Notes: a model not told the origin generated them from the letters alone. DNA of 64,000 nt from Patescibacteria group bacterium (GCA_041660005.1 JBAZXG010000003.1:64835-128834); one strand, 5' to 3'; shown: positions 26,114-44,000, counted from the first letter of the stretch. Made by a program: numbers and translations.

Positions 26114-26171
26114 ATCTTGGCCCAGTCAAACTGGGCACACCTGCGTCAAACCAAGTTTGACTTGGTGGAGC
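26114..26171. repeat. 58-bp hairpin-rich repeat, copy A (abuts the 3' end of tRNA-Thr)
   Basis: ATCTTGGCCCAGTCAAACTGGGCACACCTGCGTCAAACCAAGTTTGACTTGGTGGAGC is identical base-for-base to 27282-27339. It contains the hairpins CCCAGT-CAA-ACTGGG and ACCAAGT-TTG-ACTTGGT. Confidence 0.95.
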
Positions 26172-26263: not shown

Positions 26264-27199
26264 TTAGTTATTTGGCTGTGTCCAGCAATGTATTCCGCTC
26301 GACATTGTTGCACAGAGTTTGTAGTGTTGTCCATCCTCAGAGGCGACATAAGTAAAACGTTTGAGCTGAATTTGATTGTCTTTATCTGTTGACTCGTCTA
26401 ATGTAATTTGCGCTTCAAGGAGTGTTTTCGGGTAAATCTTATATCTCAAGTAGAATAAATCAAGTTCAGCTCGCAAGAATTGACTCTTTCCCGATAACAT
26501 TTCGTCACTTGTATTAATTGAAACATTCACTTGTTGAATCATGTTAACAATTCCAAATGCAATTACTAAAACAACGACAATTATCGATACACCCGTAACA
26601 AATTGTTCAACTGCAAGGGATTTTCTGGATCGATTAATAATTATTTCTTTGTGCTGGAAACAATAAAGCAGCAGATAGTAAACGACAATAATATCAACCC
26701 CATGCAAACAAGTAAGATATGAATTGATTGAGTTGTAAGAAATAAGGAGATAGAGAAGAAAACCAAAAATATTGATTCCGGTAACCCAATTAACAATTTG
26801 TTTTGATCGGGTAGCATCAATTTGGCTTGTCTTAATTACACTATTTGTTGCAATCCAAATTGCAAACGAACTTGCCGAAAGATAAAGAAGTGCCACGAGT
26901 AGTAGTAGTGCTGCACGTGTTAGTTGCTGAGTAACGTCAGGAAGAAAAAAATTAACTAAGATACTGCCGAAGGTAAATACAAACGAACCGACAGCTAGTC
27001 GTGTAATTATTATGGTCCTTACTTGCCAGAATAAGCTTCGTTGAGATGGTAGGATGGGTGGTGTTGTAGGAGAAACTTCCATAAGGGTAAGGGTTATTTT
27101 CTTGGAGCGCTGCTTATCGCGAGACAATGACCTTATCATCAGGCAGTGGTTCATTCGATAACTCTGAGTACCGCAAACGTAATATTTATTGCTATCCAT
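26264..27199 (-). CDS. Hypothetical polytopic membrane protein with pilin-like C-terminal module
   Basis: 311-aa low-GC ORF with an uncertain start and about 5 hydrophobic helices. The last ~130 aa resemble a type IV pilin-like module (see findings). Confidence 0.5.
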   Translation of the reverse strand: MDSNKYYVCGTQSYRMNHCLMIRSLSRDKQRSKKITLTLMEVSPTTPPILPSQRSLFWQVRTIIITRLAVGSFVFTFGSILVNFFLPDVTQQLTRAALLLLVALLYLSASSFAIWIATNSVIKTSQIDATRSKQIVNWVTGINIFGFLLYLLISYNSINSYLTCLHGVDIIVVYYLLLYCFQHKEIIINRSRKSLAVEQFVTGVSIIVVVLVIAFGIVNMIQQVNVSINTSDEMLSGKSQFLRAELDLFYLRYKIYPKTLLEAQITLDESTDKDNQIQLKRFTYVASEDGQHYKLCATMSSGIHCWTQPNN

Positions 27200-27281: not shown

Positions 27282-27339
27282 ATCTTGGCCCAGTCAAACT
27301 GGGCACACCTGCGTCAAACCAAGTTTGACTTGGTGGAGC
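27282..27339. repeat. 58-bp hairpin-rich repeat, copy B (abuts the 3' end of tRNA-Gly)
   Basis: Identical to 26114-26171. Similarity continues in degenerate form for about 20 bp to the left (GTTTgACTTGcTA vs GTTTaACTTGgTA). Confidence 0.95.
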
Positions 27340-27582: not shown

Positions 27583-28302
27583 ATGACAAGCGAACCAAAA
27601 AATAAACAAAAAAATCAACCCATGATAGAGCTGAAAGGCGTGAGCAAGCTCTATGGGGACAATATTACTGCATTGCAAAGTGTCAGTTTTAGTATTGTTC
27701 CTGGAGAACTCGTGTCCGTCGTCGGCAGATCTGGAGCTGGCAAGAGCACTATTGTTCGGTTATTACTTGCTGAGGAGAAGGTCTCGCGCGGCAGCATCAG
27801 CGTCGGTGGCTGGGACATAACAAATGTTTCGCGTCGCGACGTACCGCAGTTGCGTCGGCAGATTGGCACGGTTTTTCAAGACTTTAAATTGCTTCCCAAA
27901 AAAACTATTTTTGAAAATGTTGCCTTTGCGCTCGAGGTGAGTGGAGAAGCATCAAAGATTATTCGTGAAGTGGTGCCGCAAGTTTTGCAACTGGTCGGTT
28001 TAGGTAACCGCTTGCATCAATACCCGGCGCAACTTTCTGGCGGTGAACAGCAGCGTGCCAGTATTGCGCGTTCACTCATCCATCGTCCGAAGCTGTTACT
28101 TGCTGACGAACCGACAGGGAATCTTGACTCGATTAACACCGCAGAAATTATTGATCTTCTAAAAAAGATTAATGATCTTGGCACCACCGTGGTGCTGGTA
28201 ACGCACAACCGCGACGTAGTGAATACTTTGCGTAAGCGCGTTATCACGCTCGACAAGGGAACTATTATTTCAGACCAAGCTGTTGGTCGTTACGTTTTAT
28301 AA
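27583..28302 (+). CDS. ftsE: Cell division ATP-binding protein FtsE
   Basis: Walker A GRSGAGKST, ABC signature LSGGEQQR, Walker B LLLADEPTGNLD. It is followed directly by ftsX. Confidence 0.9.
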   Translation: MTSEPKNKQKNQPMIELKGVSKLYGDNITALQSVSFSIVPGELVSVVGRSGAGKSTIVRLLLAEEKVSRGSISVGGWDITNVSRRDVPQLRRQIGTVFQDFKLLPKKTIFENVAFALEVSGEASKIIREVVPQVLQLVGLGNRLHQYPAQLSGGEQQRASIARSLIHRPKLLLADEPTGNLDSINTAEIIDLLKKINDLGTTVVLVTHNRDVVNTLRKRVITLDKGTIISDQAVGRYVL

Positions 28303-28320
28303 TTGAGAATTGAGGTCATT

Positions 28321-29235
28321 ATGATTGCTGCTACACATAGAGTCCTACGTTTTGCTCTCCAGTCAATGTGGAGAAATTTATGGTTGACCATTGCCACAGG
28401 CGCCACAATTGCCCTCACGGTTTTTTCTCTGAGCAGTCTTCTGGCTATTCACGTTGGCATTGCACAAGTTGTTCGGTCGGTCGAGAGTCAGCTTGATCTT
28501 ACGTTGACACTTTACCCAACCGTCACGGAGTCACAAGCAAATACCCTCGTTGTTGCCATCAATGGACTCCCAAATGTAAAGAAAGTTACCTACGTATCTA
28601 AGGAGCAAGTGCTCGAAGAGCAAAAACAAAGTGGCGACGCCGAAGTGCTACGGTCGCTAGAAGCGATCGGGGAGAACCCTTTTGGCGCGTCACTCATTGT
28701 TGAAGCCACAGACTCGAAGGCGTATCTCGCGATCATTGACGAGCTAAAAAAAGAGCAGTACTCCGCGCTTATCGAAGGCCAAGAAAAGCACTTTGAAGAG
28801 AACAAGAATTTTTTGCAGAATTTCTCCAATTTTGCCGATAAGGTCCGCTATGCAGCACTGGCTGTAACGGCTGTATTTGCCCTTATAAGCGCCTTAATGG
28901 TGTTTAATGCCGTACGGGTAGCGATTTACACACAGAGGGAGGAAATCACGGTTATGCGCCTCGTCGGAGCGACAAGTTCATTCATTCGTGGACCATACCT
29001 CGCCGAACTATTTATTTACTCTGTTACGTCAGTCATTATTGGCGGTGCGTTATTCATGGGTCTGCTGTATGCCGGCCAACCCTATCTATCAACGTATTTT
29101 GGTCAGGAAAATGTTAACTTACTCGGATATTTCCAAGACAATGCACTCCTTATTTTTGGCGCTCAATTTGTAGGGCTAATGCTTTTGAGCATGGTCAGCG
29201 CGTCACTGGCAGTGCAGCGATATTTGAGCGTTTAG
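28321..29235 (+). CDS. ftsX: Cell division permease FtsX
   Basis: ORF 28303..29235. The ATG at 28321 is preceded by GAGG. Topology is TM1, a periplasmic loop domain, then three C-terminal TM helices, typical of FtsX. Confidence 0.85.
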   Translation: MIAATHRVLRFALQSMWRNLWLTIATGATIALTVFSLSSLLAIHVGIAQVVRSVESQLDLTLTLYPTVTESQANTLVVAINGLPNVKKVTYVSKEQVLEEQKQSGDAEVLRSLEAIGENPFGASLIVEATDSKAYLAIIDELKKEQYSALIEGQEKHFEENKNFLQNFSNFADKVRYAALAVTAVFALISALMVFNAVRVAIYTQREEITVMRLVGATSSFIRGPYLAELFIYSVTSVIIGGALFMGLLYAGQPYLSTYFGQENVNLLGYFQDNALLIFGAQFVGLMLLSMVSASLAVQRYLSV

Positions 29236-29296: not shown

Positions 29297-29370
29297 TGGG
29301 GGATCGTCTAATGGTAGGACAGCGGCCTTTGAAGCCGTGAATCATGGTTCGAATCCATGTCCCCCAGCCA
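29297..29370 (+). tRNA. tRNA-Gln (anticodon UUG), CCA encoded
   Basis: TGGGGGA-TC-GTCT-AATGGTA-GGAC-A-GCGGC-CTTTGAA-GCCGT-GAAT-CATGG-TTCGAAT-CCATG-TCCCCCA-G-CCA. The U1-A72 pair is typical of bacterial tRNA-Gln. Confidence 0.92.
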
Positions 29371-29407
29371 AAAATCCTGGGCCCCCTTTACGGGGCTGAG
29401 GATTTTT
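29371..29407 (+). terminator. Hairpin terminator immediately after tRNA-Gln
   Basis: AAAATCCT-GG-GCCCC-CTTTAC-GGGGC-TG-AGGATTTT followed by T. Confidence 0.6.
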
Positions 29408-29418
29408 GATTGTAGGAG

Positions 29419-29681
29419 TATAATGGATTCGAACTTAGCATCACCCCGTGGCGGGTTTCTCGAGGGCCGAGGGGCCCTCGAAGTGGGGGTCGGGGTGAGG
29501 CGGTATGGTTCTAGGAGCTCCGCTAGCCGGCGGGGCGACGGAATCCTGTCCCCAGGTTGGAGATTTTTTGTTTGAGAGATACAATGAATTCGAAGCGGGA
29601 AGGTGTTCCGCCAGAGGCGGACAGGATGGGAAGCGAAGCGACTGGTTCTAGGCCCGTTTAACGGGCCGGAATCCATGTCCC
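29419..29681 (+). repeat. Two tandem GC-rich structured units carrying degraded copies of the tRNA-Gln 3' end
   Basis: Unit 1 is 29419-29553 and unit 2 is 29580-29681. Each reads TAyAAT-GrATTCGAA ... stable hairpin ... TGGTTCTAGG-hairpin-CGGAATCC(A)TGTCCC. Compare tRNA-Gln CATGGTTCGAATCCATGTCCCCCA. Confidence 0.6.
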
Positions 29682-29789
29682 TTCAACGAGCACCGGCGAA
29701 GTTGGTACAGAGCGCACCAGCGCGAATGTAATACTTTGCCAATGGACTATCTGCGTATAAGGCGGTTCGAATTGCTTGTTAATTGACCT

Positions 29790-30515
29790 ATGTTATTCAC
29801 GAAAAAAGAAATTTTAGATGAAATAAGACGTACCGCAGAAGAAAACGGGGGTATACCCTTAGGCATGGACAGGTTCAAAAAAGAAACTGGGATAGGCCCA
29901 TTTGACGTAAGCAGATATTGGCCACGCTTTGGTGATGCGATAAGTGAAGCTGGATTGACGCGAAACGAACGATGGACACGTTATTCTGACGATCTTTTAA
30001 TAGAGAAGTCAATTGAAAAAATAAGGAAGTATGGTAGGTACCCAACCTTGAATGAATTATTTGTGGAATTTAATCAGGGTGATGATTTTCCGTTTCACAT
30101 ATTCAAAAAACGTTCTCAACCTTACATGGTAAAGAAAATACTTGAATACTGTCATAGTAGAAACGGTTATGAAGATGTCATTCAGGCTTGTGAACCTATT
30201 CTTAAAAAATTGAACAGTAAGGATGACCTATATAGTGATACCAAAAAGACCGAAAAAATTGGTGAGGTTTATCTCTTTAAATCCGGTAAATACTATAAGA
30301 TTGGAAAAACAAATGATACCGTGCGACGTGGAAAAGAACTTCGAATTCAACTGCCTGAAAATTTAAAGCTAATTCATTCAATTAAAACTGATGACACAAG
30401 TGGTATTGAAACATATTGGCACAAAAGGTTTGAGGGTAAGAGGATGAACGGTGAATGGTTTGATTTAAGTGCAGCAGATATTAAATCCTTTAAAAGCTGG
30501 AGGCGTATAGCTTAG
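29790..30515 (+). CDS. GIY-YIG superfamily (T5orf172/MUG113-type) protein with two N-terminal homing-endonuclease-associated helical repeats
   Basis: N-terminal repeats KKEILDEIRRTAEENGGIPL...RFGDAISEAGL and a second degenerate copy. The C-terminus reads GEVYLFKSGKYYKIGKTNDTVRRGKEL...YWHKRFEGKRMNGEWFDL. Confidence 0.65.
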   Translation: MLFTKKEILDEIRRTAEENGGIPLGMDRFKKETGIGPFDVSRYWPRFGDAISEAGLTRNERWTRYSDDLLIEKSIEKIRKYGRYPTLNELFVEFNQGDDFPFHIFKKRSQPYMVKKILEYCHSRNGYEDVIQACEPILKKLNSKDDLYSDTKKTEKIGEVYLFKSGKYYKIGKTNDTVRRGKELRIQLPENLKLIHSIKTDDTSGIETYWHKRFEGKRMNGEWFDLSAADIKSFKSWRRIA

Positions 30516-30594
30516 GTTCATTTATTATCTTAAGGTAGGTTTCGCATTCCGAAGAGTATTGGATTAATTGTGCGTGTTTTAATGAAATTGTTAT

Positions 30595-31140
30595 ATGGAT
30601 GAGAAAAACGAAGAAAGACTAGCTCCAGATGGTCTGCCGAAGCATTTTAAGATTGAGTGGAATGAGCCATTTTCTGTCTCCACTGGATCAACACCAGGAT
30701 CGTATTCTTCTGTTTCGATTCCAGTTGATTCCACAAAGTTGAAATCGGCAAAAATAAACACAGGTGGTAGTGGCGGTGTGATATTCGAAGATACGCCAGT
30801 ATATAAGTTTAAAACTACAAATTTAAAAATTAAAGACGGTAACTCTTGGGCCCATGTACGTACAAAAGTTGATTCAAGGGGAGATTATATTGATGTAATT
30901 TTTGGAAATTCAATAAACCCTCGACATTCACACATAGGATTTGAATTATCAGCTCCGCTTTTTTTAGAAATGCGAAACAAAGGCACTATTAATACAGAAT
31001 CTGCCGCTGAGGAAGGTGTAGGAGTGACCGCAGGTTCGCTTAGCTTAAAGGATACTCCTACAGGGAAATTAGTAAGACTCGACTTCGCATTAAATCTAAG
31101 TAGTAATGAAATAGAGATAACTGATTTTATTTTTATTTAG
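30595..31140 (+). CDS. Hypothetical protein (cassette gene B)
   Basis: 181-aa soluble, beta-rich ORF in the low-GC block. No family recognised. Confidence 0.45.
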   Translation: MDEKNEERLAPDGLPKHFKIEWNEPFSVSTGSTPGSYSSVSIPVDSTKLKSAKINTGGSGGVIFEDTPVYKFKTTNLKIKDGNSWAHVRTKVDSRGDYIDVIFGNSINPRHSHIGFELSAPLFLEMRNKGTINTESAAEEGVGVTAGSLSLKDTPTGKLVRLDFALNLSSNEIEITDFIFI

Positions 31141-31152
31141 TGTTTAAAGACA

Positions 31153-31629
31153 ATGACAAATATAGCTTGGAATTTAAGAAGCATCGTAATTTATGAAAAA
31201 ATCACTAACAAAGAATCCGGAAATTCAGGAGAACAAGAGATTGTGGATCTTGTACCGTGTCCGAATTGCGGTAAGAAGTTGATGAAACTTCCCCCGAACT
31301 ATCCTTTATATGACGTTCAATGCACGGGGTGCTCTTTTCGTGCCCAAGTAAAGACAAACCAGAGCAAACCAAAGTCCGTCGTTTTTGGTGCAGGATGGCA
31401 AATTATGAACAAGGTGTTGAAGTCTGGTTATATGACACCGCCCCTATTTCTTAATTTTAAGTGGCTAGAAAAAAGCATTCAAAGACAGGAAGTCCGTTTT
31501 TATCCGTTTGTACCTAAAAAGAATCTCTCCAACTACCGTCTTTCTAATACAGCCAGACGCGCCAACTACGAAATGTTTACTTATACAGGGATGGACAAAC
31601 TTCCATATTTTTCAGTATTTAAAAAATGA
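31153..31629 (+). CDS. Zinc-ribbon PD-(D/E)xK-like nuclease, DpnI/Dam-replacing-family-like catalytic domain only (cassette gene C)
   Basis: CPNCGKKL...YDVQCTGCSFRAQVKT...GAGWQIMNKVL...PPLFLNF...LSNTARRANY is colinear with my recollection of the DpnI N-terminal domain. There is no winged-helix C-terminal domain. Confidence 0.5.
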   Translation: MTNIAWNLRSIVIYEKITNKESGNSGEQEIVDLVPCPNCGKKLMKLPPNYPLYDVQCTGCSFRAQVKTNQSKPKSVVFGAGWQIMNKVLKSGYMTPPLFLNFKWLEKSIQRQEVRFYPFVPKKNLSNYRLSNTARRANYEMFTYTGMDKLPYFSVFKK

Positions 31630-31662
31630 TAAGGTGTTTAGAAATTATAATTAGTGAATAAT

Positions 31663-32535
31663 ATGGATCAGTCTTCCGTGTTGGCTTTAGCAAGTTTATC
31701 AAAAGATATAGCACAGCTTAATTTAGGATACTTAGGAATATCAGTAGCAATTCTTGGTGCGCTTGGTGGGGTTTTTGTTTATTTTAACTTAAATCCCTTG
31801 AAAGAAAACTTAAGCAAACAAGAAAAGAAAATCGAAGATTTAAAAGCCGAAGCACACAGCTTATTAGATGAATCAAAAGTTCAATCTGAGAAAACACTTG
31901 AAGATTTTGCAATAAGTCAGTTTGATAAAACGAGCCTACTTCTTAAACAGCAAAAAAATGAAATTGACTTAGAGACAAAAAATAAGATACAAGATTCTCA
32001 TAGTTTGTTATCGGATAAAATTGAAAATATTTCAGAAAGTAAAGACCTGAAACTTAAAGAAATTATTCTTTCGGAGTCTAATAATAATTTAGCTATCCTA
32101 GACAAAAATCTAACCCTGAAAATTAGTACGACCAAAGAGGATGTTCTTAAAGAAATTAAGTTAGTGAATGCTGGGATAAATGCAAAAATTAAGGAATTAA
32201 GTGAAAAAGTCATAGAATTGCAGGTTTATAAATACAGTAAAGAAGGACAGATGGGTGCAATAATTTATTCTATTGAGTTGCTTGAAAATGCGATAGAAGA
32301 TTATTTTAAAACGAAAAAAGAACTTGTTAATAAGTTGGAAAATTCATCTGACGACAAGACGTTTGGGTGGAAAGTTAATTATAGGTTAGAGGGTTTAATA
32401 AAGGAAATTGGTGATTCCAAATTGGAGGAGGATGAAGTCAAAAAAATTCTTATACAAATATCAAAAATTGAAAATGAAAGTGTTTTTAAGGTTTTAGCTG
32501 GAGAACTTAAGAAAAAAGTTTTGTATAAAAATTGA
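31663..32535 (+). CDS. Single-pass membrane protein with long K/E-rich coiled coil (cassette gene D)
   Basis: TM helix LGYLGISVAILGALGGVFVYF, then about 240 aa of heptad-like K/E/L-rich sequence. GTG at 31654 is an alternative start. Confidence 0.5.
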   Translation: MDQSSVLALASLSKDIAQLNLGYLGISVAILGALGGVFVYFNLNPLKENLSKQEKKIEDLKAEAHSLLDESKVQSEKTLEDFAISQFDKTSLLLKQQKNEIDLETKNKIQDSHSLLSDKIENISESKDLKLKEIILSESNNNLAILDKNLTLKISTTKEDVLKEIKLVNAGINAKIKELSEKVIELQVYKYSKEGQMGAIIYSIELLENAIEDYFKTKKELVNKLENSSDDKTFGWKVNYRLEGLIKEIGDSKLEEDEVKKILIQISKIENESVFKVLAGELKKKVLYKN

Positions 32536-32590
32536 AGTTCCATTTTATCTGCAAACATACTAACTTGTAATAGATAATTTACCAATAAAT

Positions 32591-33538
32591 ATGGAAAATA
32601 TTGCAGAAAAATTCTTCAATTCCTTTACTAAAATGGAAGATATCGAAAAATTAATTAGCGAAGGAGAAACCGAAGGCCAATATCTAGAATGTAAAAGCCC
32701 TCAGGGTCCATATTTTGACAAAGGATTGAAATCACAGCTAGCAAAAGAACTCTCTGCTTTCGCTAATGCAGGTGGTGGGGTTATTTTATTTGGTGTTTCT
32801 ACCACAAAACATAAGCATTCTGAAACAGATGTTTTGTCTCAGATTGAAGAAGTGGGAGCAGTTAAAAAATTTAGAAAAGAACTTGACGTGATCACAACAA
32901 CCTTAATTGAACCATCTATAATATCTTGTAGGTCAAAAGTTATTTTTAGAAATCCTTCTGATTCTAGGGGAGTAGTAGTAACTTTTGTTCCTCCAACTCC
33001 TGGTGATCCAATTAGAAGTAACCTTGACCGTGAGTTTTATATAAGAATTGGGGATGATTCAAGCAAAATGCCATATGAAACCGTAAAAAAAATGTTTGCT
33101 GGGACAGCAGGTCCAGAATTATCAGCGTTGTTTAATGACAGATTAGTAAAGTTAGAAGGTGATGGATCATGGAAAATTCCAATAATTTTAAGTAACGAAT
33201 CTAGTGCTGCAGCCAAAGACACAGAAGTTTCAGTCACGGTAATAAATGGTAGTGCCTGTGAAACTATTAGTGGAGAAATCTTCAAGGATCAGTCAAATGT
33301 AAACCCTGGGTCAAAAGTATTTATGACTGATATCGATAAGCCAATTTTTAGGGGAAAGAACGTTGTGGTCGGCTATATAGTTGTAAAAATGAAAAAAGCA
33401 AAGTTTTATAAAAGAAATTTAAATCTCAAAATAGATATATTTGCTAGTAATATGAGGGCTAAAACATATACGATAACAATAAAACTCGCAAAAAAGGGCT
33501 TTTCTGTAATGAAAACTAAGTCTGAATATTTATACTAG
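32591..33538 (+). CDS. AlbA_2/Schlafen-type putative nucleic-acid-binding domain protein with unknown C-terminal domain (cassette gene E)
   Basis: EGETEGQYLECKSPQ...LAKELSAFANAGGGVILFGVS matches the AlbA_2 (PF04326-like) pattern as I recall it. The C-terminal ~170 aa are unassigned. Confidence 0.55.
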   Translation: MENIAEKFFNSFTKMEDIEKLISEGETEGQYLECKSPQGPYFDKGLKSQLAKELSAFANAGGGVILFGVSTTKHKHSETDVLSQIEEVGAVKKFRKELDVITTTLIEPSIISCRSKVIFRNPSDSRGVVVTFVPPTPGDPIRSNLDREFYIRIGDDSSKMPYETVKKMFAGTAGPELSALFNDRLVKLEGDGSWKIPIILSNESSAAAKDTEVSVTVINGSACETISGEIFKDQSNVNPGSKVFMTDIDKPIFRGKNVVVGYIVVKMKKAKFYKRNLNLKIDIFASNMRAKTYTITIKLAKKGFSVMKTKSEYLY

Positions 33539-33689
33539 GATCATACTCGAGGCGCTTTCTTTTGCCGTAACAAAAGAGTCAGCAATAACATTGTAAAGTA
33601 ACGAGTCAAAAGGTTAGTGCTCGAAAACGGCAGCAAAAATTCCTCCCTCCACGGTTGGAACTTTCCCCCTCGCGAGATACAATTTAAAC

Positions 33690-33935
33690 ATGCCTAAAAC
33701 AGCCCCATCTTTCACACATAAAGTTCCAGCGGACTTCCGAAGGGCTATTGGCTCTACCCCTCGCGCGAAAGCGGTATGGGATGATATCACTCCAATAGCA
33801 CGCAATGAGTGGATTTGCTGGGTAACATCCGGCAAAAAAGCCGAGACGCGAAATATCCGGATCGCAAAAGCACTTTCAAAACTAAGTGGAGGAATGCGCA
33901 GACCTTGCTGTTGGGCCAGCTGTCCGCACCGTTGA
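33690..33935 (+). CDS. YdeI/OmpD-associated family protein (short form)
   Basis: VPADFRRAIGSTPRAKAVWDDITPIARNEWICWVTSGKKAETRNIRIAKALSKL...RRPCCWASCPH is a typical YdeI C-terminal domain. Its GC is normal, unlike its neighbours. Confidence 0.7.
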   Translation: MPKTAPSFTHKVPADFRRAIGSTPRAKAVWDDITPIARNEWICWVTSGKKAETRNIRIAKALSKLSGGMRRPCCWASCPHR

Positions 33936-33973
33936 GAAAAACAGGTAAGTTTTCTGCCATAGTGGTAACAAAT

Positions 33974-34495
33974 ATGCAGCCCTATAGATTTAGTCCAATA
34001 GAAAATAAAGAACAGTTGTTAGAAGCTATAGAATATACGCATTTTAAATGTTTTGAGTTATGCAAAAAGAACTTTGGCAGATATCTTCCCGTTGCCGGTA
34101 ATATCGGAATATTTTCTCATTATGATGATGAGTATGAGTTTCTTACAAAGTTAAGAGAAGAACTAACTGAAAAGTCCGATAATTGGAACCATAAGTATTA
34201 CCGTCTTCTCGAGCCTATAAGAATTGCCGCAAAGGGTGATGTGCCTGATACTGTATATACTTATCTCTATATTCGTAAACCAGATAAGCATAAGGAAGTT
34301 GGCGATGTTGATTTTGTCTTGGGTCTCAATGAATTTAGTGAATTAAAAGACTCTTTACATCACAGCAAGGAAATCAAAGGTATAGAAGTATTCGACCGCG
34401 TTGACCTTGATCTAATTAAACTGTTCGACTCCGATACTGATGTCCTTTCTTTTATCGGGACGAAGAACATGACCGAAAATATACGACCATTATGA
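33974..34495 (+). CDS. Hypothetical protein
   Basis: ATG at 33974 inside ORF 33809..34495; the upstream part overlaps ydeI in another frame. Low GC. No family recognised. Confidence 0.4.
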   Translation: MQPYRFSPIENKEQLLEAIEYTHFKCFELCKKNFGRYLPVAGNIGIFSHYDDEYEFLTKLREELTEKSDNWNHKYYRLLEPIRIAAKGDVPDTVYTYLYIRKPDKHKEVGDVDFVLGLNEFSELKDSLHHSKEIKGIEVFDRVDLDLIKLFDSDTDVLSFIGTKNMTENIRPL

Positions 34496-34749
34496 CCCCA
34501 TACAAACACACGCAAATTGGATATCTGATGCTGGTTGTTACGTTTTGTGTGCTGGTGCTCTTCGCATGGGCGCAAATTACGGTTCGGCTTGAGCCGCCCT
34601 CTGCCGACTCTGGAGCAAATTTTGCCATTACTGCGATAATGGTATTAGTTCTGTTTATTGTAACCGATTTCCACCGTCAAAATAAGACCGGAATCATGTC
34701 CACGGGGGCTATGGCCTATACCGTGCTTATCCTCTTATTCTTGTGTTAG
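34492..34749 (+). pseudogene. Truncated duplicate of the 5' part of gene 36310..36774
   Basis: The first 168 nt (34492-34659) are about 89% identical to 36310-36477 by hand alignment with 18 mismatches. The reading frame then diverges and stops after 85 codons. Confidence 0.6.
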
Positions 34750-34779
34750 TTCCAATTATAGTATATAATTTAAACCAAA

Positions 34780-34799
34780 GGTACCCATATTTGGGTACC
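34780..34799. promoter_or_regulatory. Inverted repeat (candidate AbiEi operator) upstream of abiEi
   Basis: GGTACCCA-TATT-TGGGTACC, 48 nt upstream of the ATG at 34847 and just downstream of a TATAGTATATAAT stretch. Confidence 0.45.
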
Positions 34800-34846
34800 A
34801 ATATCGTACAAATCATCAATTTACTTGTAGTGAGCAAAGTCGCACT

Positions 34847-35494
34847 ATGGAAAAAGACTACATTTTAGACTTAATGAGATCAAAGAAGACTGTCTTTACT
34901 TTTAAAGACCTTATTTTGCTTTGGGGAGAATCTGACGTCAATTTTGTTAAGAAGAAGATTCATCGCTATGTTAAAGCTGGCAAAATGAACGCTGTACGCA
35001 GAGGCATTTACTCCAAAGATAAAAATTACGATAAATACGAGTTAGCTACAAAAATATATACTCCTTCATACGTCAGCATGGAGACGGCTTTAGGCGCGGC
35101 CGGAATTACTTTTCAGCTGTACGGGCAGATTTTTATTGCGTCATATACCACCAAAGAAATTGAGTGTGATGGGCAGAAATATTCTTATAAGAAAATAAAG
35201 GATACCATTCTCACCAATCAGGCTGGTATAGAGTCAAGAGAAAATTACAGTATCGCTTCGCGCGAAAGAGCATTTTTGGATGTTATCTATCTCAATAAGG
35301 ATTATCATTTTGATAATCTCTCGGCTTTGAATTGGGAAAAAGTATACGAAATCTTACCCATTTATCGTGGTAATAAACGTATGGCTAAGATGGTGAAAAT
35401 GTACCATAAAGCATTTTCTGCCGACTTGTCCGCCGAAGCCGCAGCGCAGGCGGGAGGAGGTCCGCCTCTAGCAGAAAGAATTCCAACTAGATAA
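34847..35494 (+). CDS. AbiEi-family type IV toxin-antitoxin antitoxin
   Basis: The N-terminal wHTH-like segment (FTFKDLILLWGESDVNFVKKKIHRYVKAGKMNAVRRGIYS) and its position directly upstream of an AbiEii gene support the call. Confidence 0.75.
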   Translation: MEKDYILDLMRSKKTVFTFKDLILLWGESDVNFVKKKIHRYVKAGKMNAVRRGIYSKDKNYDKYELATKIYTPSYVSMETALGAAGITFQLYGQIFIASYTTKEIECDGQKYSYKKIKDTILTNQAGIESRENYSIASRERAFLDVIYLNKDYHFDNLSALNWEKVYEILPIYRGNKRMAKMVKMYHKAFSADLSAEAAAQAGGGPPLAERIPTR

Positions 35495-35501
35495 TAATCA
35501 T

Positions 35502-36206
35502 ATGGCTCTTGATACCGCAAAGCATAAAAATGTTCTCATAAAAATCCTCAAGGATATCTATACTGACGCAACCATTAGTCCGATCTTAGGATTTAAGGGT
35601 GGGACAGCTGCTACATTTTTCTATAACCTCGACCGCTTCTCGGTGGATTTGGATTTTGATTTACTTGATTCAGACAAAGAGAACTACGTGTTTGGTCGTG
35701 TTAAAGCAATTATTGAGAATTATGGCAAATTAAAAGAGTCACGAAAGAAAAGATTCAATCTTTTTTATATTCTTTCTTATGACGACAAAGATATTAACGC
35801 CCAAAACGTCAAGGTAGAAATTAATCGCCGTGAATTCGGTTCAAAATATTCGGTGGAATCATTTCTTGGTATCTCGATGCAGGTGATGGTGAAAGAAGAT
35901 ATGGTTGCACATAAACTTTGTGCTATGTACGAACGGATTGGTAAGACGAATCGCGACATTTTTGATGTTCAGTTTTTCCTTTCGCACGACTGGCCTGTTA
36001 ATAAAAAAATTGTTGAGAATCGTACAGGTGTCTCGTATGCAGAATTTTTGAAAAAGTGTATTGATGTAATGGAAAAATTCGATGACAGCAATGTACTTTC
36101 CGGTATGGGTGAATTACTCACTGAGAAACAGAAAGCATGGGCAAAAACAAAGCTTAAGTCAGAGGCGTTGTTTTTGCTTAGGTTAGCTCTGGAGAAGGAA
36201 AAGTAA
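35502..36206 (+). CDS. AbiEii/AbiGii-family nucleotidyltransferase toxin (DUF1814)
   Basis: LGFKGGTAATFFYNLDRFSVDLDFDLLD is the characteristic GGTA...R.S.D.D motif block; 234 aa. Confidence 0.85.
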   Translation: MALDTAKHKNVLIKILKDIYTDATISPILGFKGGTAATFFYNLDRFSVDLDFDLLDSDKENYVFGRVKAIIENYGKLKESRKKRFNLFYILSYDDKDINAQNVKVEINRREFGSKYSVESFLGISMQVMVKEDMVAHKLCAMYERIGKTNRDIFDVQFFLSHDWPVNKKIVENRTGVSYAEFLKKCIDVMEKFDDSNVLSGMGELLTEKQKAWAKTKLKSEALFLLRLALEKEK

Positions 36207-36309
36207 ACTTATATGCCAAATATAATCGCCGACAAAACCAAAAAACAGACTTACTATAAGTGCACTTCACTCACTATCCTCGGCAATAAGGTGATCACAG
36301 AATAGATTT

Positions 36310-36774
36310 ATGACTTCCTACAAACACACGCAAATTGGATATTTGATGCTGGTTGTCACGTTTTGTGTGCTGATGCTTTTCGCATGGGCTCAAATTACGG
36401 CCCGGCTTGAGCCACCCTCTGTCGACTCTGGAGCAAATTTTGCCGTTACGAGCATCATGGTATTAGTTCTGTTTATTCTTTCATCATTTGCGACGCTCAC
36501 AGTGTCGATTGATGAAAATTATCTTCGAGTTAAATTTGGCTATGGTATTTTCGCCAGGAAGTTTGAATTGAATCAGATAGCTTCAGTTAAAACAGTAAAG
36601 AATCACTGGTACTACGGATGGGGGATAAGGTTGTGGTTCTGGCCCAAAATGTGGATTTTTAATGTTTCCGGTTTTGATGCAGTCGAGCTCGTTATGAAAA
36701 ATGGAAAAATCTACCGCATAGGAACAGACGTTCCAGGAGAGCTTGAGACTGCGATCAAAGCGGTGTTAAAGTAA
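36310..36774 (+). CDS. Small membrane protein (two TM helices plus a soluble C-terminal domain), intact paralogue of 34492..34749
   Basis: 154-aa ORF beginning MTSYKHTQIGYLMLVVTFCVLMLFAWAQI, with a C-terminal beta-rich domain. No family recognised. Confidence 0.55.
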   Translation: MTSYKHTQIGYLMLVVTFCVLMLFAWAQITARLEPPSVDSGANFAVTSIMVLVLFILSSFATLTVSIDENYLRVKFGYGIFARKFELNQIASVKTVKNHWYYGWGIRLWFWPKMWIFNVSGFDAVELVMKNGKIYRIGTDVPGELETAIKAVLK

Positions 36775-36783
36775 TTTGGAATT

Positions 36784-37203
36784 GTGCCCACCAATAAACA
36801 AAAAATTCTAGAGTTCATCAAAGCACATCATATTGCCGTTGTTGCCACGACGGATACTGAAAAACCTGAAGCAGCAGTTGTTGAGTACGGCGAGACCGAT
36901 GAACTGGAACTCATTATTGATACCTTCATTTCTTCACGAAAGAGCAAAAATATTTTGCATAACCCAAACGTCGCTCTTGTCATCGGTTGGGACAATAACA
37001 TAACCCTTCAGTATGAAGGTGAGGCGACCGAACTAAAAGGTAGTGAGCTAGAAAAAAGCAAGGAGATATATTTTAAAAAGAACCCGCGTGCAAAAGAGTG
37101 GGACGGTCGTGAAGGAATAGTATATTTTAAAATCATTCCAAAATGGATCCGATATTCTGATTTGAATAAACACCCATGGGAAGTTTTTGAGATCAATCTA
37201 TAA
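36784..37203 (+). CDS. Pyridoxamine 5'-phosphate oxidase family (FMN-binding split barrel) protein
   Basis: IAVVATTDTEKPEAAVVEYG...NPNVALVIGWDNNITLQYEGEA...YFKIIPKWIRYSD fits the PNPOx-like pattern. GTG start. Confidence 0.65.
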   Translation: MPTNKQKILEFIKAHHIAVVATTDTEKPEAAVVEYGETDELELIIDTFISSRKSKNILHNPNVALVIGWDNNITLQYEGEATELKGSELEKSKEIYFKKNPRAKEWDGREGIVYFKIIPKWIRYSDLNKHPWEVFEINL

Positions 37204-37282
37204 ATGATTACTGGGTTATTAAACCTCTTTGATTTAGTACAATTTACAGGGTACACTCAGTTTCGATTGATAGGGTCAAAAT

Positions 37283-38215
37283 ATGATTGAAAAAAGAGGA
37301 CAATTTAATCCAGAGGTAAAGCTACCACCCGAAACTGAAAGCGACATGGCTTCAATTCGTTTGGAATTCTTTCGCCATGACGATAAAGAATCTGAAGCAG
37401 GTGACCCTTCGGTTCGTCTATCTCAACGTGGTCGGGTACATGCCACCGAAGCTGGCCTAACTAAAAATGCGCACGCGGAAGTCGCTTTAGCTTATGGCTC
37501 GTTAAAGGATAGAACAGCCGAAACAGCATTGCGACATGCGTTGGCGCGGCGAGAGGAAATTCAGCCAACGCACTCTTTGGAGGATATTCAGAGAATTGTT
37601 GATCAAGAATTAAATGTTGGGAAAAAAGGTAAAAAACTTATTAAAAACAGAGTATTACCGCAATTAAATTTGAATAATCGTGGTACGGCGCAATATCGTC
37701 AACAGTGGTTGCAGCACTACAAAGAAAGTAAGGATGCCTTGCGGTTTGTTTATCACGATAGTGATCGGTTAGCACAAGAGTTAAATGACAAAAAATCAAC
37801 TTCTTATTCCCGAGCAGCTGGTAATGTGGCTGAGTTAATTCAAAAGTATATTGGCATCCTGCCACGCTGGCAGGAAATTGTTAAACAGAATCCCGATAAG
37901 TACAAAAGATTCCGCGATGAGTTGCAGAGGTTTTTTTGTTCTCATCACGCCGTATTAGAGCCGTTCTTAATGAAAGTTATTGAACGGACCGAAGGGGAAG
38001 AGGGGGTTGAAAAATTTATTGAGTCGTTGCCAAACAAAAATGGGTTTGGTTTAAGTGAAGGTTATTCGGTTACCATAACAGGGCACGATGGTCAGCCCAC
38101 TGTTACTTTAAAGTACGGCGACAAGGAGTGGGTTATACCGACAGAAATGGTGAACGAAATTGTTCGAGAAAGAGATGAATTCAATCATCTGATAGATAAT
38201 AAATCTTCAGTATGA
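37283..38215 (+). CDS. Hypothetical protein, possible divergent histidine-phosphatase-superfamily member
   Basis: N-terminal IRLEFFRHDDKES...LSQRGRVHATEAG resembles the RHG...LT.G..QA motif block. The remaining ~200 aa are unassigned. Confidence 0.35.
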   Translation: MIEKRGQFNPEVKLPPETESDMASIRLEFFRHDDKESEAGDPSVRLSQRGRVHATEAGLTKNAHAEVALAYGSLKDRTAETALRHALARREEIQPTHSLEDIQRIVDQELNVGKKGKKLIKNRVLPQLNLNNRGTAQYRQQWLQHYKESKDALRFVYHDSDRLAQELNDKKSTSYSRAAGNVAELIQKYIGILPRWQEIVKQNPDKYKRFRDELQRFFCSHHAVLEPFLMKVIERTEGEEGVEKFIESLPNKNGFGLSEGYSVTITGHDGQPTVTLKYGDKEWVIPTEMVNEIVRERDEFNHLIDNKSSV

Positions 38216-38742
38216 AATTTATTTTTGTAAGGCACGGAGAAACGGATTGGAACAAAAAAGGTTTGTTGCAAGGTCATAATGACACAGAGTTAAACAAAAC
38301 GGGCATACAACAAGCGGTTCAGTTGTTGCCCACTCTGGAAAAATATCATTTTGACGTTATATACTCGTCATCCCTAAAACGTGCTTACGAAACAGCAAAA
38401 ATAATAAGTAATCACTTTAATGTGCCCATAATTATCAGCGATCACCTAAAAGAAAAGAATTTTGGCTCACTTGCGGGTAAAAGCTGGCAAGAAAACAGCG
38501 AAGCGACAGGAAAAGATTTAAAAACTATCGATCGGCGTCAGCAGTACGACTATAGTCCATATGGTGGCGAAACAGCAGAGGAAGTTAAGGCAAGAGTTAA
38601 AAAGTTTATTGAAGAGGTAAAAATAAGCGGTTACAAACAACCATTGGTTATTAGTCACGGAGGTATCATTAGAGTGTTGCGTCCTTATTCCGATGAGGTA
38701 CCGAAAGTTATGAATGCCTCGGTTCATCAATTTGATCTTTAG
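38212..38742 (+). CDS. Histidine phosphatase family protein (phosphoglycerate-mutase-like)
   Basis: FIFVRHGETDWNKKGLLQGHNDTELNKTGIQQA...SSSLKRAYETA...VISHGGIIR is canonical. The ATGA start overlaps the upstream stop. Confidence 0.85.
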   Translation: MKFIFVRHGETDWNKKGLLQGHNDTELNKTGIQQAVQLLPTLEKYHFDVIYSSSLKRAYETAKIISNHFNVPIIISDHLKEKNFGSLAGKSWQENSEATGKDLKTIDRRQQYDYSPYGGETAEEVKARVKKFIEEVKISGYKQPLVISHGGIIRVLRPYSDEVPKVMNASVHQFDL

Positions 38743-38751
38743 TGAATAATA

Positions 38752-39210
38752 ATGCGTACCATTAACCGAGACATCGTTTCTGTTTTGTTGCTTTCCAAAG
38801 AGGGTAAGTTACTTATTGGGCTGCAGTCTTTAAATGAATATAATGTTTACCCAGGATGTTGGGGTATTATCGGCGGAGGTGTCGACAACGGTGAAGACCA
38901 AAGAACTGCACTTAATCGCGAAGTATTAGAAGAGTCTGGTGTTGATATTCAAAAATACCATGCGGAGTTGATTGATGTAGCCGGTGGTGAAGCAGAAAAA
39001 ACTTTAAGAAACACGAATGAACGCGTTCTTGTAAAAATGAAGTTCCATGTTTACAGGGTCGTCATGGACGATAAAAACTCAAACGATATCACGGTAACGT
39101 TAAACGATGAGCACTCTGCATATCAGTGGCTATATTCATCTGAATTGAGTCAATTAAAACTTGCGCCTCCATCAGAAGCTTTATTTAAAAAACTTGGATA
39201 TTTGCAATAG
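38752..39210 (+). CDS. NUDIX hydrolase
   Basis: Nudix box GGGVDNGEDQRTALNREVLEESGV (G-x5-E-x7-REVxEExG). Confidence 0.85.
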   Translation: MRTINRDIVSVLLLSKEGKLLIGLQSLNEYNVYPGCWGIIGGGVDNGEDQRTALNREVLEESGVDIQKYHAELIDVAGGEAEKTLRNTNERVLVKMKFHVYRVVMDDKNSNDITVTLNDEHSAYQWLYSSELSQLKLAPPSEALFKKLGYLQ

Positions 39211-39221
39211 TGTAATTATCA

Positions 39222-39509
39222 ATGATCTCCCTACTCAAAAAACCGAGTGCCTGGATTCCAATAGTTATTCCGCTACTCTTTTTTGCCTATATAGTTATTG
39301 CAATTTCTTTTTTTGAAATAGTGCGAGAGAAAGACGAAGGAGTTGGTGCGCACCTTTTTCAGTTGTGGCTCCTCATTGAACCGTTTATGGTTGGATATTT
39401 TGCTATTCGTTGGTTGCCGCGTGCACCGAAACAAGCAGTTACGATTCTAGTCATTCAGGTTCTCGCTGCACTTTTGCCTATATCAACAGTTTTCGCTTTT
39501 AAGCTATAA
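39222..39509 (+). CDS. Small membrane protein, hypothetical
   Basis: 95-aa ORF with three hydrophobic helices. Confidence 0.4.
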   Translation: MISLLKKPSAWIPIVIPLLFFAYIVIAISFFEIVREKDEGVGAHLFQLWLLIEPFMVGYFAIRWLPRAPKQAVTILVIQVLAALLPISTVFAFKL

Positions 39510-39520
39510 AGAACGAAACT

Positions 39521-40348
39521 ATGAAAGTTCTGTTACTCGGAGCAAATAGTTATGTCGGTTCACGAGTTTATTTAGAACTAAAAAAGGATCATGAAGTAGT
39601 TGGCACATTTCACAACAAAAAACTTTTTACGAATCTCGTCTTTCTTGATGTTACCGATAGGCAAGCGGTAATGGATCTTATTATTAAAGAAAAACCGAAC
39701 GTAATCGTTCACTGTGCAAATCAGGCGAGTAATAGGTGGTGCGAAGAACATTTAGAAGATGCCGTTAAGATTAATCGGGAGGCAACAAAATTTATTGTAG
39801 AGGGGGCGAATATTGTTGACTCAAAAGTAATTTATGTTTCTTCCTTCGCGGCGATTTCTCCGACTAACTTGTATGGAATAATGAAAGAGGAGTCAGAACG
39901 GATGATTAAAACGGTTCGTTCGGGTTACGCAATAATCCAGCCGGGGGTAATAGTTGGTATTAGTCCAAAGATAAAAAAGGAAGATGGATTTTTTAGTTCT
40001 CTTATGGAAAATTTAAATGACAATAAGCCGGCCGAGTATGACAATATCAAAAAGTATCAACCAACCTATTTGGGTCATATTTGCGAAGTAATCAAGTTGA
40101 TTTTAGAAAGAGGTCTTTGGAATAAAACATTTCCCGTAGCATCACTAGGCGTTAAAACAAAGTATGAATTAGCAAAAGACATCTTATCTCCTTTTGGAAT
40201 AACAGTAGAAGAAGTTGAAGGTAGTCACACGATTACTAAGAAAAAGACACAAGGCCTAAAGGAACTAAACGAATCGAGTCTGCCGGTCTACACATATATG
40301 CAGACCATTGAGAAGGTTGTCGAAGAAATTAAAGCCAGTAACTGTTGA
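39521..40348 (+). CDS. NAD-dependent epimerase/dehydratase (extended SDR, RmlD-like)
   Basis: N-terminal Rossmann MKVLLLGANSYVGSRVY and a YxxxK-type region (NLYGIMKEESE). Confidence 0.65.
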   Translation: MKVLLLGANSYVGSRVYLELKKDHEVVGTFHNKKLFTNLVFLDVTDRQAVMDLIIKEKPNVIVHCANQASNRWCEEHLEDAVKINREATKFIVEGANIVDSKVIYVSSFAAISPTNLYGIMKEESERMIKTVRSGYAIIQPGVIVGISPKIKKEDGFFSSLMENLNDNKPAEYDNIKKYQPTYLGHICEVIKLILERGLWNKTFPVASLGVKTKYELAKDILSPFGITVEEVEGSHTITKKKTQGLKELNESSLPVYTYMQTIEKVVEEIKASNC

Positions 40349-40351
40349 ACT

Positions 40352-40963
40352 ATGAAAATCTTCCTCGCCACAACCAACGGTGGGAAAATTGAGCGGCTTA
40401 CGAAACTACTAAAACAGATCAACGTAGACATTGAAGTTTATACTCCGGCAGATTTACACATAGAAATTCCCGAAATTGTGGAAACTGGAAAATCTTTACT
40501 CGAGAATGCAAAGACTAAGGCCCGCGCATATTTTGGCAAAGTTCAAATGCCTATTCTTGCAAACGACACAGGTTTTTATGTAGAGGGGGAGGGGTTCATT
40601 GATGCGCCTAAACGGGAAGCGCTTGGAGAGGCCAGCGAGGGTACGTTGTCCTTAGAAGAGATCTCTAAAAAAATGGCAGATTTTTGGAAAGGTATAGCCA
40701 TTAAACACGGCGGCAAAGTAGACGCGTCATGGATTGAATCTTTTGTGGTTCTCTACCAGGACGGCACAATGAAAGAAGCTGAGTCCCGTAGAGATGTTGT
40801 TTTGACGAACCAAGAGTTTGGTACACCGCACGTACAAATGCCGGTACGTGCCCTCTATTACTCAAAAGTCACTAATAAACCCGCCATTCAACATACTAAA
40901 GAAGAGGAGATTCAAGAGATGAAGCCGATCATAGATGCTTTAGTCAATGTGTTAGAATATTGA
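40352..40963 (+). CDS. Non-canonical purine NTP pyrophosphatase (Ham1/RdgB/ITPase family)
   Basis: MKIFLATTNGGKIERL...ETGKSLLENAKTKA...DTGFYV is a Ham1-like pattern. Confidence 0.65.
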   Translation: MKIFLATTNGGKIERLTKLLKQINVDIEVYTPADLHIEIPEIVETGKSLLENAKTKARAYFGKVQMPILANDTGFYVEGEGFIDAPKREALGEASEGTLSLEEISKKMADFWKGIAIKHGGKVDASWIESFVVLYQDGTMKEAESRRDVVLTNQEFGTPHVQMPVRALYYSKVTNKPAIQHTKEEEIQEMKPIIDALVNVLEY

Positions 40964-41029
40964 TTTTGGAAGCGTAGGGATGGTATTTGGCGCTTGACAG
41001 TAAATAACCGTTGTATATACTATAGATAT

Positions 41030-41565: not shown

Positions 41566-41567
41566 CT

Positions 41568-42113: not shown

Positions 42114-42135
42114 TAAGAAGTGATATAATACTTCT

Positions 42136-43182: not shown

Positions 43183-43184
43183 GT

Positions 43185-43991: not shown

Positions 43992-44000
43992 AGCAGTCTG

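Follow-up and report, generated by a model that had tools for sequence, protein, structure and literature searches.

Organization of the tRNA-Gln Locus

The stretch analyzed here (64,000 nt from a Patescibacteria group bacterium, GCA_041660005.1 JBAZXG010000003.1:64835-128834), referred to below as the window and numbered from its first letter as position 1, contains a tRNA-Gln gene followed by two copies of a structured tRNA-derived element, designated units 1 and 2, by a low-GC (guanine plus cytosine) cassette of five genes and, further downstream, by a pair of AbiE genes. The tRNA closes a syntenic block that includes FtsE (27583-28302) and FtsX (28303-29235). A short motif resembling the 3' end of the tRNA recurs at this locus, and the original prediction took its copies for the footprint of site-specific integration into tRNA-Gln. 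The features that lie next to the tRNA are listed first; L006 and similar handles denote loci of other genomes used for comparison.

29297-29370, + strand: tRNA-Gln(UUG) with encoded CCA, the last conserved element of the tRNA-Thr/tRNA-Gly/FtsE/FtsX/tRNA-Gln block (ARAGORN; Rfam tRNA model, 64.9 bits; identical to the tRNA-Gln of L006 in 74 of 74 nt)
29371-29426, + strand: terminator-like hairpin (29380-29397 and a T-run), then a TATAAT box (comparison with L006)
29427-29556, + strand: unit 1, a tRNA-Gln-derived structured element with an enlarged GC-rich body, the signature GTTCTAG-hairpin-CGGAATC at 29508-29545 and the tail CCTGTCCCCAGG
29557-29585, + strand: promoter-type motif TTGGAG-N-GATACAAT between units 1 and 2
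29586-29691, + strand: unit 2, with a closing stem, a CCGCC-AGA-GGCGG hairpin, a long hairpin that corresponds to the T-arm with a TAG-hairpin-CG insert, and the tail CCGGAATCCATGTCCC at 29666-29681 (covariance model R1, 88 bits; consensus fold; pair counts)
29764-29773, + strand: candidate T-loop-like string GGTTCGAAT(Y), the second and only other one in the window, 17 nt upstream of the start codon of the T5orf172 nuclease gene

Sequence reading and pattern searches recovered, in place, all four predicted same-orientation copies of GAATCC(A)TGTCC: at the tRNA-Gln 3' end (GAATCCATGTCCC, 29351-29363), in unit 1 (CGGAATCCTGTCCCC, 29539-29553), in unit 2 (29666-29681) and at 34688-34701 (CCGGAATCATGTCC). 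The chance expectation of the fourth copy, roughly estimated at below 0.01 in the prediction, was recomputed, and the copy still appeared improbable by chance. The 16-mer of unit 2 with no more than two edits was expected 0.02 times and observed four times (200 first-order Markov simulations of the window), and the 13-mer CGGAATCATGTCC, taken independently from L006, a relative in which both units end with exactly this sequence, was expected 0.0015 times on both strands in Markov simulations of the window. In a Smith-Waterman search of both strands (128 kb) with the 3' end of unit 1, the site at 34688 was the top non-self match in the whole window, with a score of 21 against a background of 10.6 +/- 2.3.

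Structure and Conservation of Units 1 and 2

Units 1 and 2 are two copies of a GC-rich element of about 100-130 nt situated directly behind tRNA-Gln. The 3' part of each unit is equivalent to the T-arm and acceptor strand of tRNA-Gln with a TAG-hairpin-CG insertion in the T-loop, the T-arm-like end being thus split as GGTTC-TAG-hairpin-CG-GAATC(C)ATGTCCC. Each unit starts with (G)GATTCGAA, an inverted T-loop string, and is preceded by a -10-like box (TATAAT or TACAAT) overlapping a terminator-like hairpin. The consensus fold comprises a GGGG/CCCC closing stem followed by CAG(CCA), the CCGCC-AGA-GGCGG hairpin, and a 17-pair hairpin formed by the split T-arm. Across five copies of the long hairpin 81.7% of the pair cells were standard, compared with 74% in shuffled sequences (only 4 of 500 shuffles reached 81.7%); compensatory changes were found at three pairs of the inner hairpin, and two G.U pairs were invariant, which places the unit on the strand of the tRNA. 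When unit 2 and the two L006 units were used to build a covariance model, these members scored 88-116 bits.

The same arrangement exists in a distant genome. In L006 (JGI Ga0172380_10000104) the identical tRNA-Gln is followed by two units of the same build, and the units of the two genomes are about 92-93% identical, while FtsX is only 53% and FtsE 66% identical. The segment encompassing the tRNA tail, the terminator, the -10 box and the unit start (window 29360-29434 versus L006 11488-11562) shares 93% identity over 75 nt, which, judged from these alignments, is far above neutral intergenic expectation at such a distance. A fifth copy was found in the closest relative, L001, between tRNA-Gly and tRNA-Thr, where it stands behind tRNA-Gly (7321-7407, - strand). 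This unit-like element is built on the T-arm of tRNA-Gly, GCGGGTTC-TAG-TCCGCCAGTAGGCGGA-CG-GATTCCGC, and shares the TAG-hairpin-CG insertion of the Gln-type units. Among the loci fetched, the signature GTTCTAG-N8-30-CGGAWTC was present in the window (two copies, 0.00 expected), in L006 (two copies) and in L001 (one copy), all others lacking it apart from L003, which is the same DNA as L001 and was not counted separately.

Neither ARAGORN nor the Rfam tRNA and tmRNA models, at the gathering threshold and at E<=10, recognized the units, tRNA-Gln alone being called; identification of the units as tmRNA, a tRNA pseudogene or a known small RNA was rejected, with nothing above threshold in ARAGORN and Rfam. 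In Rfam, unit 1 gave only a sub-threshold match to Actinomyces-1 (28.5 bits versus the gathering score of 39.1). A phage origin was also rejected: the unit signature was present in no viral contig, unit DNA matched no phage record, and viral contigs contained only distant T5orf172 domains.

Because the units are conserved and structured in L006 and L001, the repeated motif should be regarded as the tail of a conserved structured tRNA-derived element rather than as a bare attachment (att) core. The part of the original prediction that treated the repeats as simple att duplications of the tRNA 3' end was not supported: the units are structured elements with a hairpin-interrupted T-loop and with promoter-like and terminator-like signals of their own, and they have been kept at an FtsX identity of 53%.

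The Motif Copy at 34688 and the Duplication around AbiE

The fourth motif copy is located among the following features.

34492-34749, + strand: truncated copy of a membrane-protein gene, homologous to the intact gene in 34492-34659 only, with a unique tail
34688-34701, + strand: orphan unit-tail motif, 13 of 14 nt identical to the 3' end of both L006 units
34847-36206, + strand: AbiEi antitoxin (34847-35494) and AbiEii nucleotidyltransferase toxin (35502-36206) genes (PADLOC AbiEi 4.8e-59, AbiEii 6.1e-76; Pfam AbiEii 2.1e-15)
36308-36774, + strand: intact membrane-protein gene (36310-36774), the first 170 nt being the right copy of an 89% repeat

The AbiEi and AbiEii genes are adjacent, as in type IV toxin-antitoxin/abortive infection systems of the AbiE kind, and are bracketed by a 170-nt duplication with 89% identity between the copies (34490-34659 and 36308-36477), which represents the 5' end of the membrane-protein gene. 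Since the truncated gene matches the intact one (36310-36774) only through 34659, the fourth motif copy does begin 29 nt past the point where the resemblance is lost, as had been predicted. It matches the units and not the tRNA, with which it shares 8 nt, out of register, at tRNA positions 43-50. Judged by this match, the fourth copy is an orphan unit tail and not a duplicate of the tRNA end. An explanation named beforehand as a threat to the prediction, that 34688-34701 is conserved coding sequence of an intact homologue, did not hold, because the tail of the open reading frame (ORF) 34492-34749 is unique: 55 homologues of this ORF align to its first ~60 residues only, and the motif-bearing tail is conserved in none of the 55. 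Nor does this copy mark the far end of the five-gene cassette, as originally supposed; it lies at a different joint, tied to the duplication of the gene fragment around AbiE.

Two further candidates in this region were discarded. Numerous "truncated" homologues of the membrane protein, considered as signs of a recurrent breakpoint, turned out on alignment to be contig-end or frameshift fragments of a normal family of ~143 aa in unrelated gene contexts, and the similarity of 34659-34684 (TGTAACCGATT...) to L006 11478-11503 was within shuffle noise. A perfect palindrome with 8-bp arms, GGTACCCATATTTGGGTACC, is found at 34780-34799, 48 nt upstream of AbiEi, and may be an operator for AbiEi autoregulation.

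The match at 34688 might, of course, be coincidental, in which case it would sit in a fast-evolving rearranged stretch, the duplication of the gene fragment would be an unrelated local event, and the units would be resident small-RNA genes with no role in gene acquisition. Such coincidence is favored by the length of the match, with an indel relative to the window's own units, by its having been selected after the fact in the first inspection of the sequence, by the absence of a unit remnant at 34688 according to the covariance model, and by the failure of further apparent similarities in controls (TGTAACCGATT... versus L006, and the junction at 33.6 kb). Against it stand the expectations (0.02 when the 16-mer is allowed no more than two edits, 0.0015 in the case of the L006-derived 13-mer), the rank of the site as the best non-self match to the unit-1 tail in 128 kb, and its position 5 kb downstream of the units, in the same orientation and 29 nt from a recombination breakpoint. 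We regard such coincidence as unlikely.

The Low-GC Cassette and the Question of an Integrase

Between the units and the AbiE region the following genes and motifs were recognized.

29790-30515, + strand: T5orf172/MUG113 nuclease of the GIY-YIG superfamily with an N-terminal HNH_repeat, the first gene of the cassette (Pfam)
30595-31140, + strand: 181-aa protein with no family match (Pfam, NCBIfam, PADLOC)
31153-31629, + strand: protein with a DpnI-like methyl-directed restriction endonuclease domain (Pfam DpnI 7.5e-11; PADLOC mREase_II 9e-8)
31654-32535, + strand: 293-aa protein without an assigned family, with the lowest GC content in the cassette (29.7%)
32591-33538, + strand: Schlafen AlbA_2 domain protein, the last gene of the cassette (Pfam 5e-12)
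33655-33683, + strand: promoter-type motif TTGGAA-N-GATACAAT upstream of the YdeI-like gene
33690-33935, + strand: small protein of the YdeI/OmdA family, 51% GC (Pfam)
33974-34495, + strand: 173-aa protein without an assigned family, the stop codon overlapping the start of the truncated membrane-protein gene (ATGA)

The five same-strand genes of the cassette (29790-33538) have a GC content of 34.1%, with 24-39% at third codon positions, compared with 38-47% GC in the neighboring genes; low GC content and defense-type genes together give it the atypical composition and accessory content of a tRNA-targeting island. Counted as defense-type were the T5orf172/GIY-YIG, DpnI-like and Schlafen AlbA_2 genes, along with AbiEi/AbiEii downstream of the cassette. 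No recombinase domain was detected in any ORF of the 29.3-36.8 kb region or its neighbors with Pfam, NCBIfam and PADLOC. The original prediction of a ~5-kb segment composed of one or more integrated islands thus stands in so far as the DNA is foreign-looking, variable, defense-bearing and free of an integrase within 29.3-36.8 kb. Its right-hand limit does not stand: the cassette composition ends at ~33.55 and not at 34.70 kb, the step being located ~1.1 kb before the orphan motif.

The sequence 33636-33683 was first taken for the right-hand direct repeat of the cassette, as 17 of 17 specified bases coincided with the junction of units 1 and 2. This was rejected: TTGGA-N16-GATACAAT is also found upstream of an MFS transporter gene at 44402, and in a whole-window scan the sequence upstream of the motif was not significant. 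The motif occurs three times in the window (0.08 expected), upstream of unit 2 (29557-29585), of the YdeI-like gene (33655-33683) and of the MFS gene (44402-44430), and the copy at 33655-33683 is a putative promoter of a shared type, not an att-like repeat. An integron cassette array was excluded as well, there being no IntI, and the cassette spacers (12-79 nt) being too short for attC.

The prediction's model of one or more classical integrative islands, inserted into the tRNA-Gln 3' end by a tyrosine or serine integrase that was later lost or acts in trans, would make units 1 and 2 and the copy at 34688 successive attL/attR scars. It accounts for the same-orientation repeats resembling the tRNA 3' end and for a cassette of foreign composition behind a tRNA; tRNA loci are classical integration sites, and 18 defense hotspots of Escherichia coli lie in tRNA loci (PMC10121019). 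In L006, moreover, the unit block is bracketed by copies of CCCCCAGCCA, and TCTTGAGATAGGTT after the last copy is what directly follows the tRNA in the unit-less tRNA-Gln locus of L001, while in L014 a T5orf172 homologue resides in an island together with a large serine recombinase. However, the 29.3-36.8 kb region contains no integrase, and the units cannot be used as T-loop att cores because their T-loop is interrupted; they also bear conserved extra structure and promoter and terminator signals and are kept across very distant genomes. The copy at 34688 shares no more than 8 nt with the tRNA, and these out of register; it is separated from the composition boundary by 1.1 kb and coincides with a gene-fragment duplication that integration at a tRNA leaves unexplained. 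Considering these facts, we find the classical integrative model improbable.

Variability behind tRNA-Gln in Relatives

FtsE, FtsX and tRNA-Gln are kept together in all five relatives (5/5), with unrelated genes directly downstream in each. Among genome and metagenome collections, Candidatus Uhrbacteria CG10_48_11 (L001, identical to L003) was the only organism with an FtsX more than 53% identical (82%). Its nucleotide synteny with the window includes tRNA-Thr, tRNA-Gly, FtsE, FtsX and tRNA-Gln, ends at the last base of the tRNA and resumes at window position 46504, in an aldo-keto reductase gene; the whole 17-kb stretch 29371-46500 is missing at this position, which is occupied by 1.6 kb of its own with an unassigned gene, a MazE-like gene and a PD-(D/E)XK gene. 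All 25 ORFs of the window in 29.8-46.5 kb are missing from L001/L003. In L006 the units are followed by unassigned, methyltransferase and restriction-modification genes, in L010 and L011 tRNA-Gln is followed by an EamA transporter gene, and in L012 by T5orf172 and then a peptidase gene. Thus tRNA-Gln closes a conserved block, and the position after it behaves as a hotspot, since its content differs in every genome seen.

An empty-site allele for this insert was sought in the collections and not found; the nearest genome (FtsX 82%) has a different insert of its own. Exact-protein look-ups of the window FtsE, the membrane protein and the FtsX cluster representative P0001 (100% identical) gave no match.

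The stretch 29371-46500 also holds ordinary-looking genes (PNPOx, histidine phosphatase, NUDIX, RmlD-like, inositol monophosphatase and MFS), and a RelB/YafQ toxin-antitoxin pair at 40994-41565 is likewise within the part missing from L001. In L010, at 1857-2025, a 5' fragment of tRNA-Gln identical to the window tRNA has a CCCGCGAGCGGG hairpin inserted in its D-loop; a whole second tRNA-Gln, with a 13-bp inverted repeat (TCCCGTACATTCC / GGAATGTACGGGA) on its two sides, splits the fragment in the anticodon loop.

The T5orf172 Nuclease and Its Contexts

The product of the first cassette gene (29790-30515) matched MUG113 (9.5e-16), T5orf172 (7.6e-7) and HNH_repeat (4.7e-4, below the Pfam cut-off). 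It thus combines a GIY-YIG-type nuclease domain with a separate DNA-binding module, as homing endonucleases do, the latter being the sub-cut-off HNH_repeat, and is a candidate free-standing homing endonuclease. Proteins of the T5orf172 subfamily of GIY-YIG nucleases have been described in phages as free-standing homing endonucleases located at genetic-exchange boundaries beside conserved genes (PMC10448857).

The window protein has more than 2000 homologues. In L012, a homologue with 61% identity lies 55 nt behind tRNA-Gln(CUG), beside FtsEX, the FtsX being only 28% identical; in the Kaiserbacteria contig L021, another homologue, also with 61% identity, is ~0.8 kb behind tRNA-Gln(CUG), near FtsEX. 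The gene was thus found behind tRNA-Gln in the window, L012 and L021, was absent there in L001, L006, L010 and L011, and occurred elsewhere in L014 and L018. Its other contexts include a position behind an aminoacyl-tRNA synthetase gene (the closest homologue, 67%) and the L014 island with a large serine recombinase. The recurrence behind tRNA-Gln is suggestive of a site preference. In L021, direct repeats of 70 nt with 79% identity (4831-4900 and 5725-5794) enclose the T5orf172 gene.

These data allow a variant in which homing itself spreads the locus: the T5orf172/GIY-YIG nuclease would cut tRNA-Gln-proximal DNA that lacks its gene, and repair of the break would copy the nuclease gene together with cargo, the tRNA and units serving as a homology arm and the unit possibly being a cleavage-resistant or decoy copy of the target. 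T4 SegB offers a precedent, since this GIY-YIG homing endonuclease acts within a cluster of tRNA genes. The presence of the GIY-YIG domain and HNH_repeat fits this variant, as does the position of the gene, which opens the cassette on its left side ~100 nt after unit 2 and closely follows the T-loop-like string; so do its placement no farther than 1 kb behind tRNA-Gln in three of the five independent contexts of homologues (window, L012, L021), a conservation far above that of the flanking FtsX (61% versus 28%) and the homing-endonuclease behavior of T5orf172 proteins described in phages (PMC10448857). On the other hand, cutting of tRNA-Gln DNA by T5orf172 is a prediction, the two other contexts differ (an aminoacyl-tRNA synthetase gene and a serine-recombinase island), and the three tRNA-Gln genes are dissimilar in sequence and anticodon (UUG versus CUG). 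Direct flanking repeats of the kind seen in L021 are not normally created by homing, and vertical inheritance with repeated loss could produce the same distribution. Spread by homing as the principal process is, in our opinion, quite unlikely.

A HicBA pair adjacent to the T5orf172 gene of L021 ends at a T-arm-like repeat, TTCGAGCTC(G/A)AGACG(G/A)TCAACC (4909-4930 and 6278-6299).

Proposed Assembly of the Locus by Recombination

Another module bracketed by direct repeats is present in the window upstream of FtsE. A 58-nt perfect direct repeat (26114-26171 and 27282-27339, features of the - strand) follows tRNA-Gly and tRNA-Thr and consists of the last 3 nt of each tRNA and a 55-nt trailer with two hairpins; it brackets tRNA-Thr and a low-GC (37%) ORF of 311 aa (26264-27199). 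This ORF is absent between tRNA-Gly and tRNA-Thr in L001 and L006 and makes the window's second insertion of this kind, behind a tRNA and free of an integrase.

Three such modules (AbiE, with 170 nt at 89% identity; the 311-aa ORF with tRNA-Thr, with 58 nt of perfect repeat; T5orf172 of L021, with 70 nt at 79% identity), together with the conserved units and tRNA and the T5orf172 nuclease, point away from a resident integrase and towards recombination between shared sequences. We propose that the region behind tRNA-Gln is a mosaic hotspot built by recombination, an integrase-less islet that received foreign accessory and defense DNA in two or more steps, in which the repeated motif is the tail of the units and the copy at 34688 is an orphan tail brought into a joint by recombination. 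The chances that this proposal is right or wrong seem to us about equal.

The mechanism is inferred from established recombination mechanisms and from the anatomy of the locus. Foreign segments would enter by recombination anchored on short stretches shared by donor and recipient, namely the tRNA with its units, tRNA trailers, or the 5' end of a neighboring gene. This could proceed either as a Campbell-type single crossover of a circularized fragment with a resident homologous stretch or through homology on one side and an illegitimate joint at the other end; in either case each module would come to lie between long, imperfect direct repeats of native sequence. The units and tRNA would be natural anchors, as they are the sole sequences at the locus conserved across distant lineages. 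In the case of AbiE, the donor would have had the order unit, AbiE, membrane-protein gene, and the entering fragment would have extended from just before the unit tail to nt ~170 of the membrane-protein gene. Such a donor fragment would explain at once why the tail is an orphan, why 28 nt of filler are present and why the gene start is duplicated. Exchange may be stimulated by the T5orf172/GIY-YIG nuclease of the left edge through cleavage of alleles that lack it.

Several observations weigh against recombinational assembly. The orphan motif is only 13-14 nt long, and a search with the unit covariance model, filters off, revealed nothing else of a unit around 34688. Stretches of 13-20 nt are too short for a RecA-dependent crossover, so the joint on the tRNA side would require homology of whole units or another enzyme. 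The composition step at ~33.55 kb has no matching repeat, and no close relative with an empty site or another allele was found in the collections. Vertical inheritance with losses could explain why T5orf172 recurs behind tRNA-Gln, its closest homologue (67%) being located behind an aminoacyl-tRNA synthetase gene. The transcription and function of the units are predictions from sequence.

Comparison with Known Systems

Known islands and prophages linked to tRNA genes and carrying tyrosine integrases are classified by the sublocation scheme of Williams (2002), in the form in which it is cited in PMC10121019. The locus resembles them in having foreign, low-GC, defense-rich DNA directly 3' of a tRNA and direct copies of a tRNA-3'-like sequence downstream, but differs in that it (29.3-36.8 kb) is devoid of an integrase and that the repeats are part of a larger conserved structured element whose T-loop is interrupted. 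Besides, the distal repeat is an orphan of 13-14 nt out of register with the tRNA, and no empty site was found in the collections. As in the defense-island hotspots of E. coli (PMC10121019), a conserved flank (here FtsEX-tRNA-Gln) borders content that is different in each genome and includes restriction, abortive-infection and toxin-antitoxin genes; unlike those hotspots, this one is in an ultra-small Patescibacteria genome, is marked by tRNA-derived structured repeats and contains modules flanked by long imperfect repeats of native sequence. The loci of free-standing GIY-YIG/T5orf172 nucleases (PMC10448857) are similar in that a nuclease with a repeat-type DNA-binding N-terminus stands at a mosaic edge beside a conserved gene, is patchily distributed and is more conserved than its neighbors. 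In contrast to the phage loci, the window gene is chromosomal in a bacterium, with several kb of cargo downstream, and its nuclease activity and target are predicted from sequence.

Campbell-type or homology-facilitated illegitimate recombination of foreign DNA is an established concept. The inserts described here conform to it, being bracketed by native direct repeats, and the identity of 79-100% between the repeat copies fits donor versus recipient sequences; unlike in established cases, the process is deduced here from anatomy alone. With tRNA-like RNAs (tRNA pseudogenes and tmRNA domains) the units share the order of acceptor-like stem, first hairpin, linker, T-arm hairpin and a 3' strand ending in CCCCCAG(CCA). 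They differ from such RNAs in being missed by ARAGORN and by the Rfam tRNA/tmRNA models, in having a hairpin in place of the T-loop and no anticodon arm, and in that the CCA is not conserved.

How Patescibacteria acquire defense genes is poorly understood because their genomes are tiny and contain few recognizable mobile elements. The locus would represent a tRNA-anchored hotspot filled without an integrase, with modules bracketed by long imperfect repeats of native DNA. The islet as such is a variant of an already known island type; novelty may lie instead in the unit family, a conserved tRNA-derived element which no RNA database recognizes. A more far-reaching proposal, which we advance as doubtful, is that the units form a previously undescribed Patescibacteria family of tRNA-derived elements tailored to the T-arm of the neighboring tRNA (Gln type and Gly type) and conserved in the TAG-hairpin-CG insertion of their T-loop. 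They would act as portable landing pads or nuclease-resistant decoys through which defense cassettes are captured and exchanged behind tRNA genes without an integrase, perhaps in concert with the T5orf172 nuclease. If the units mediate or mark gene capture, they would provide a new handle on islands and horizontal transfer in uncultured lineages, and if expressed, they would constitute a new class of tRNA-like RNA.

Conserved Elements behind Other tRNA Genes

Downstream of tRNA-Lys, at 16071-16089, the window contains a reversed copy of the first hairpin of the units (TCCGCC-TTT-GGCGGA with flanking CCTGT), identical to unit 2 in 18 of 19 nt (BLAST E 0.005). A conserved element of ~130 nt was also noticed after the terminators of tRNA-Lys, tRNA-Gly and unit A of L006 (window 15916-16110; L006 4501-4640, 8800-8920(-) and 11304-11480; L001 7410-7516(-)). 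It contains AATATTCCTTTCCCTC, whose 22 nt are the same in the window and L006, along with a variable hairpin and CTCACAA(A)TTTCTTCACTC, and has no Rfam match.

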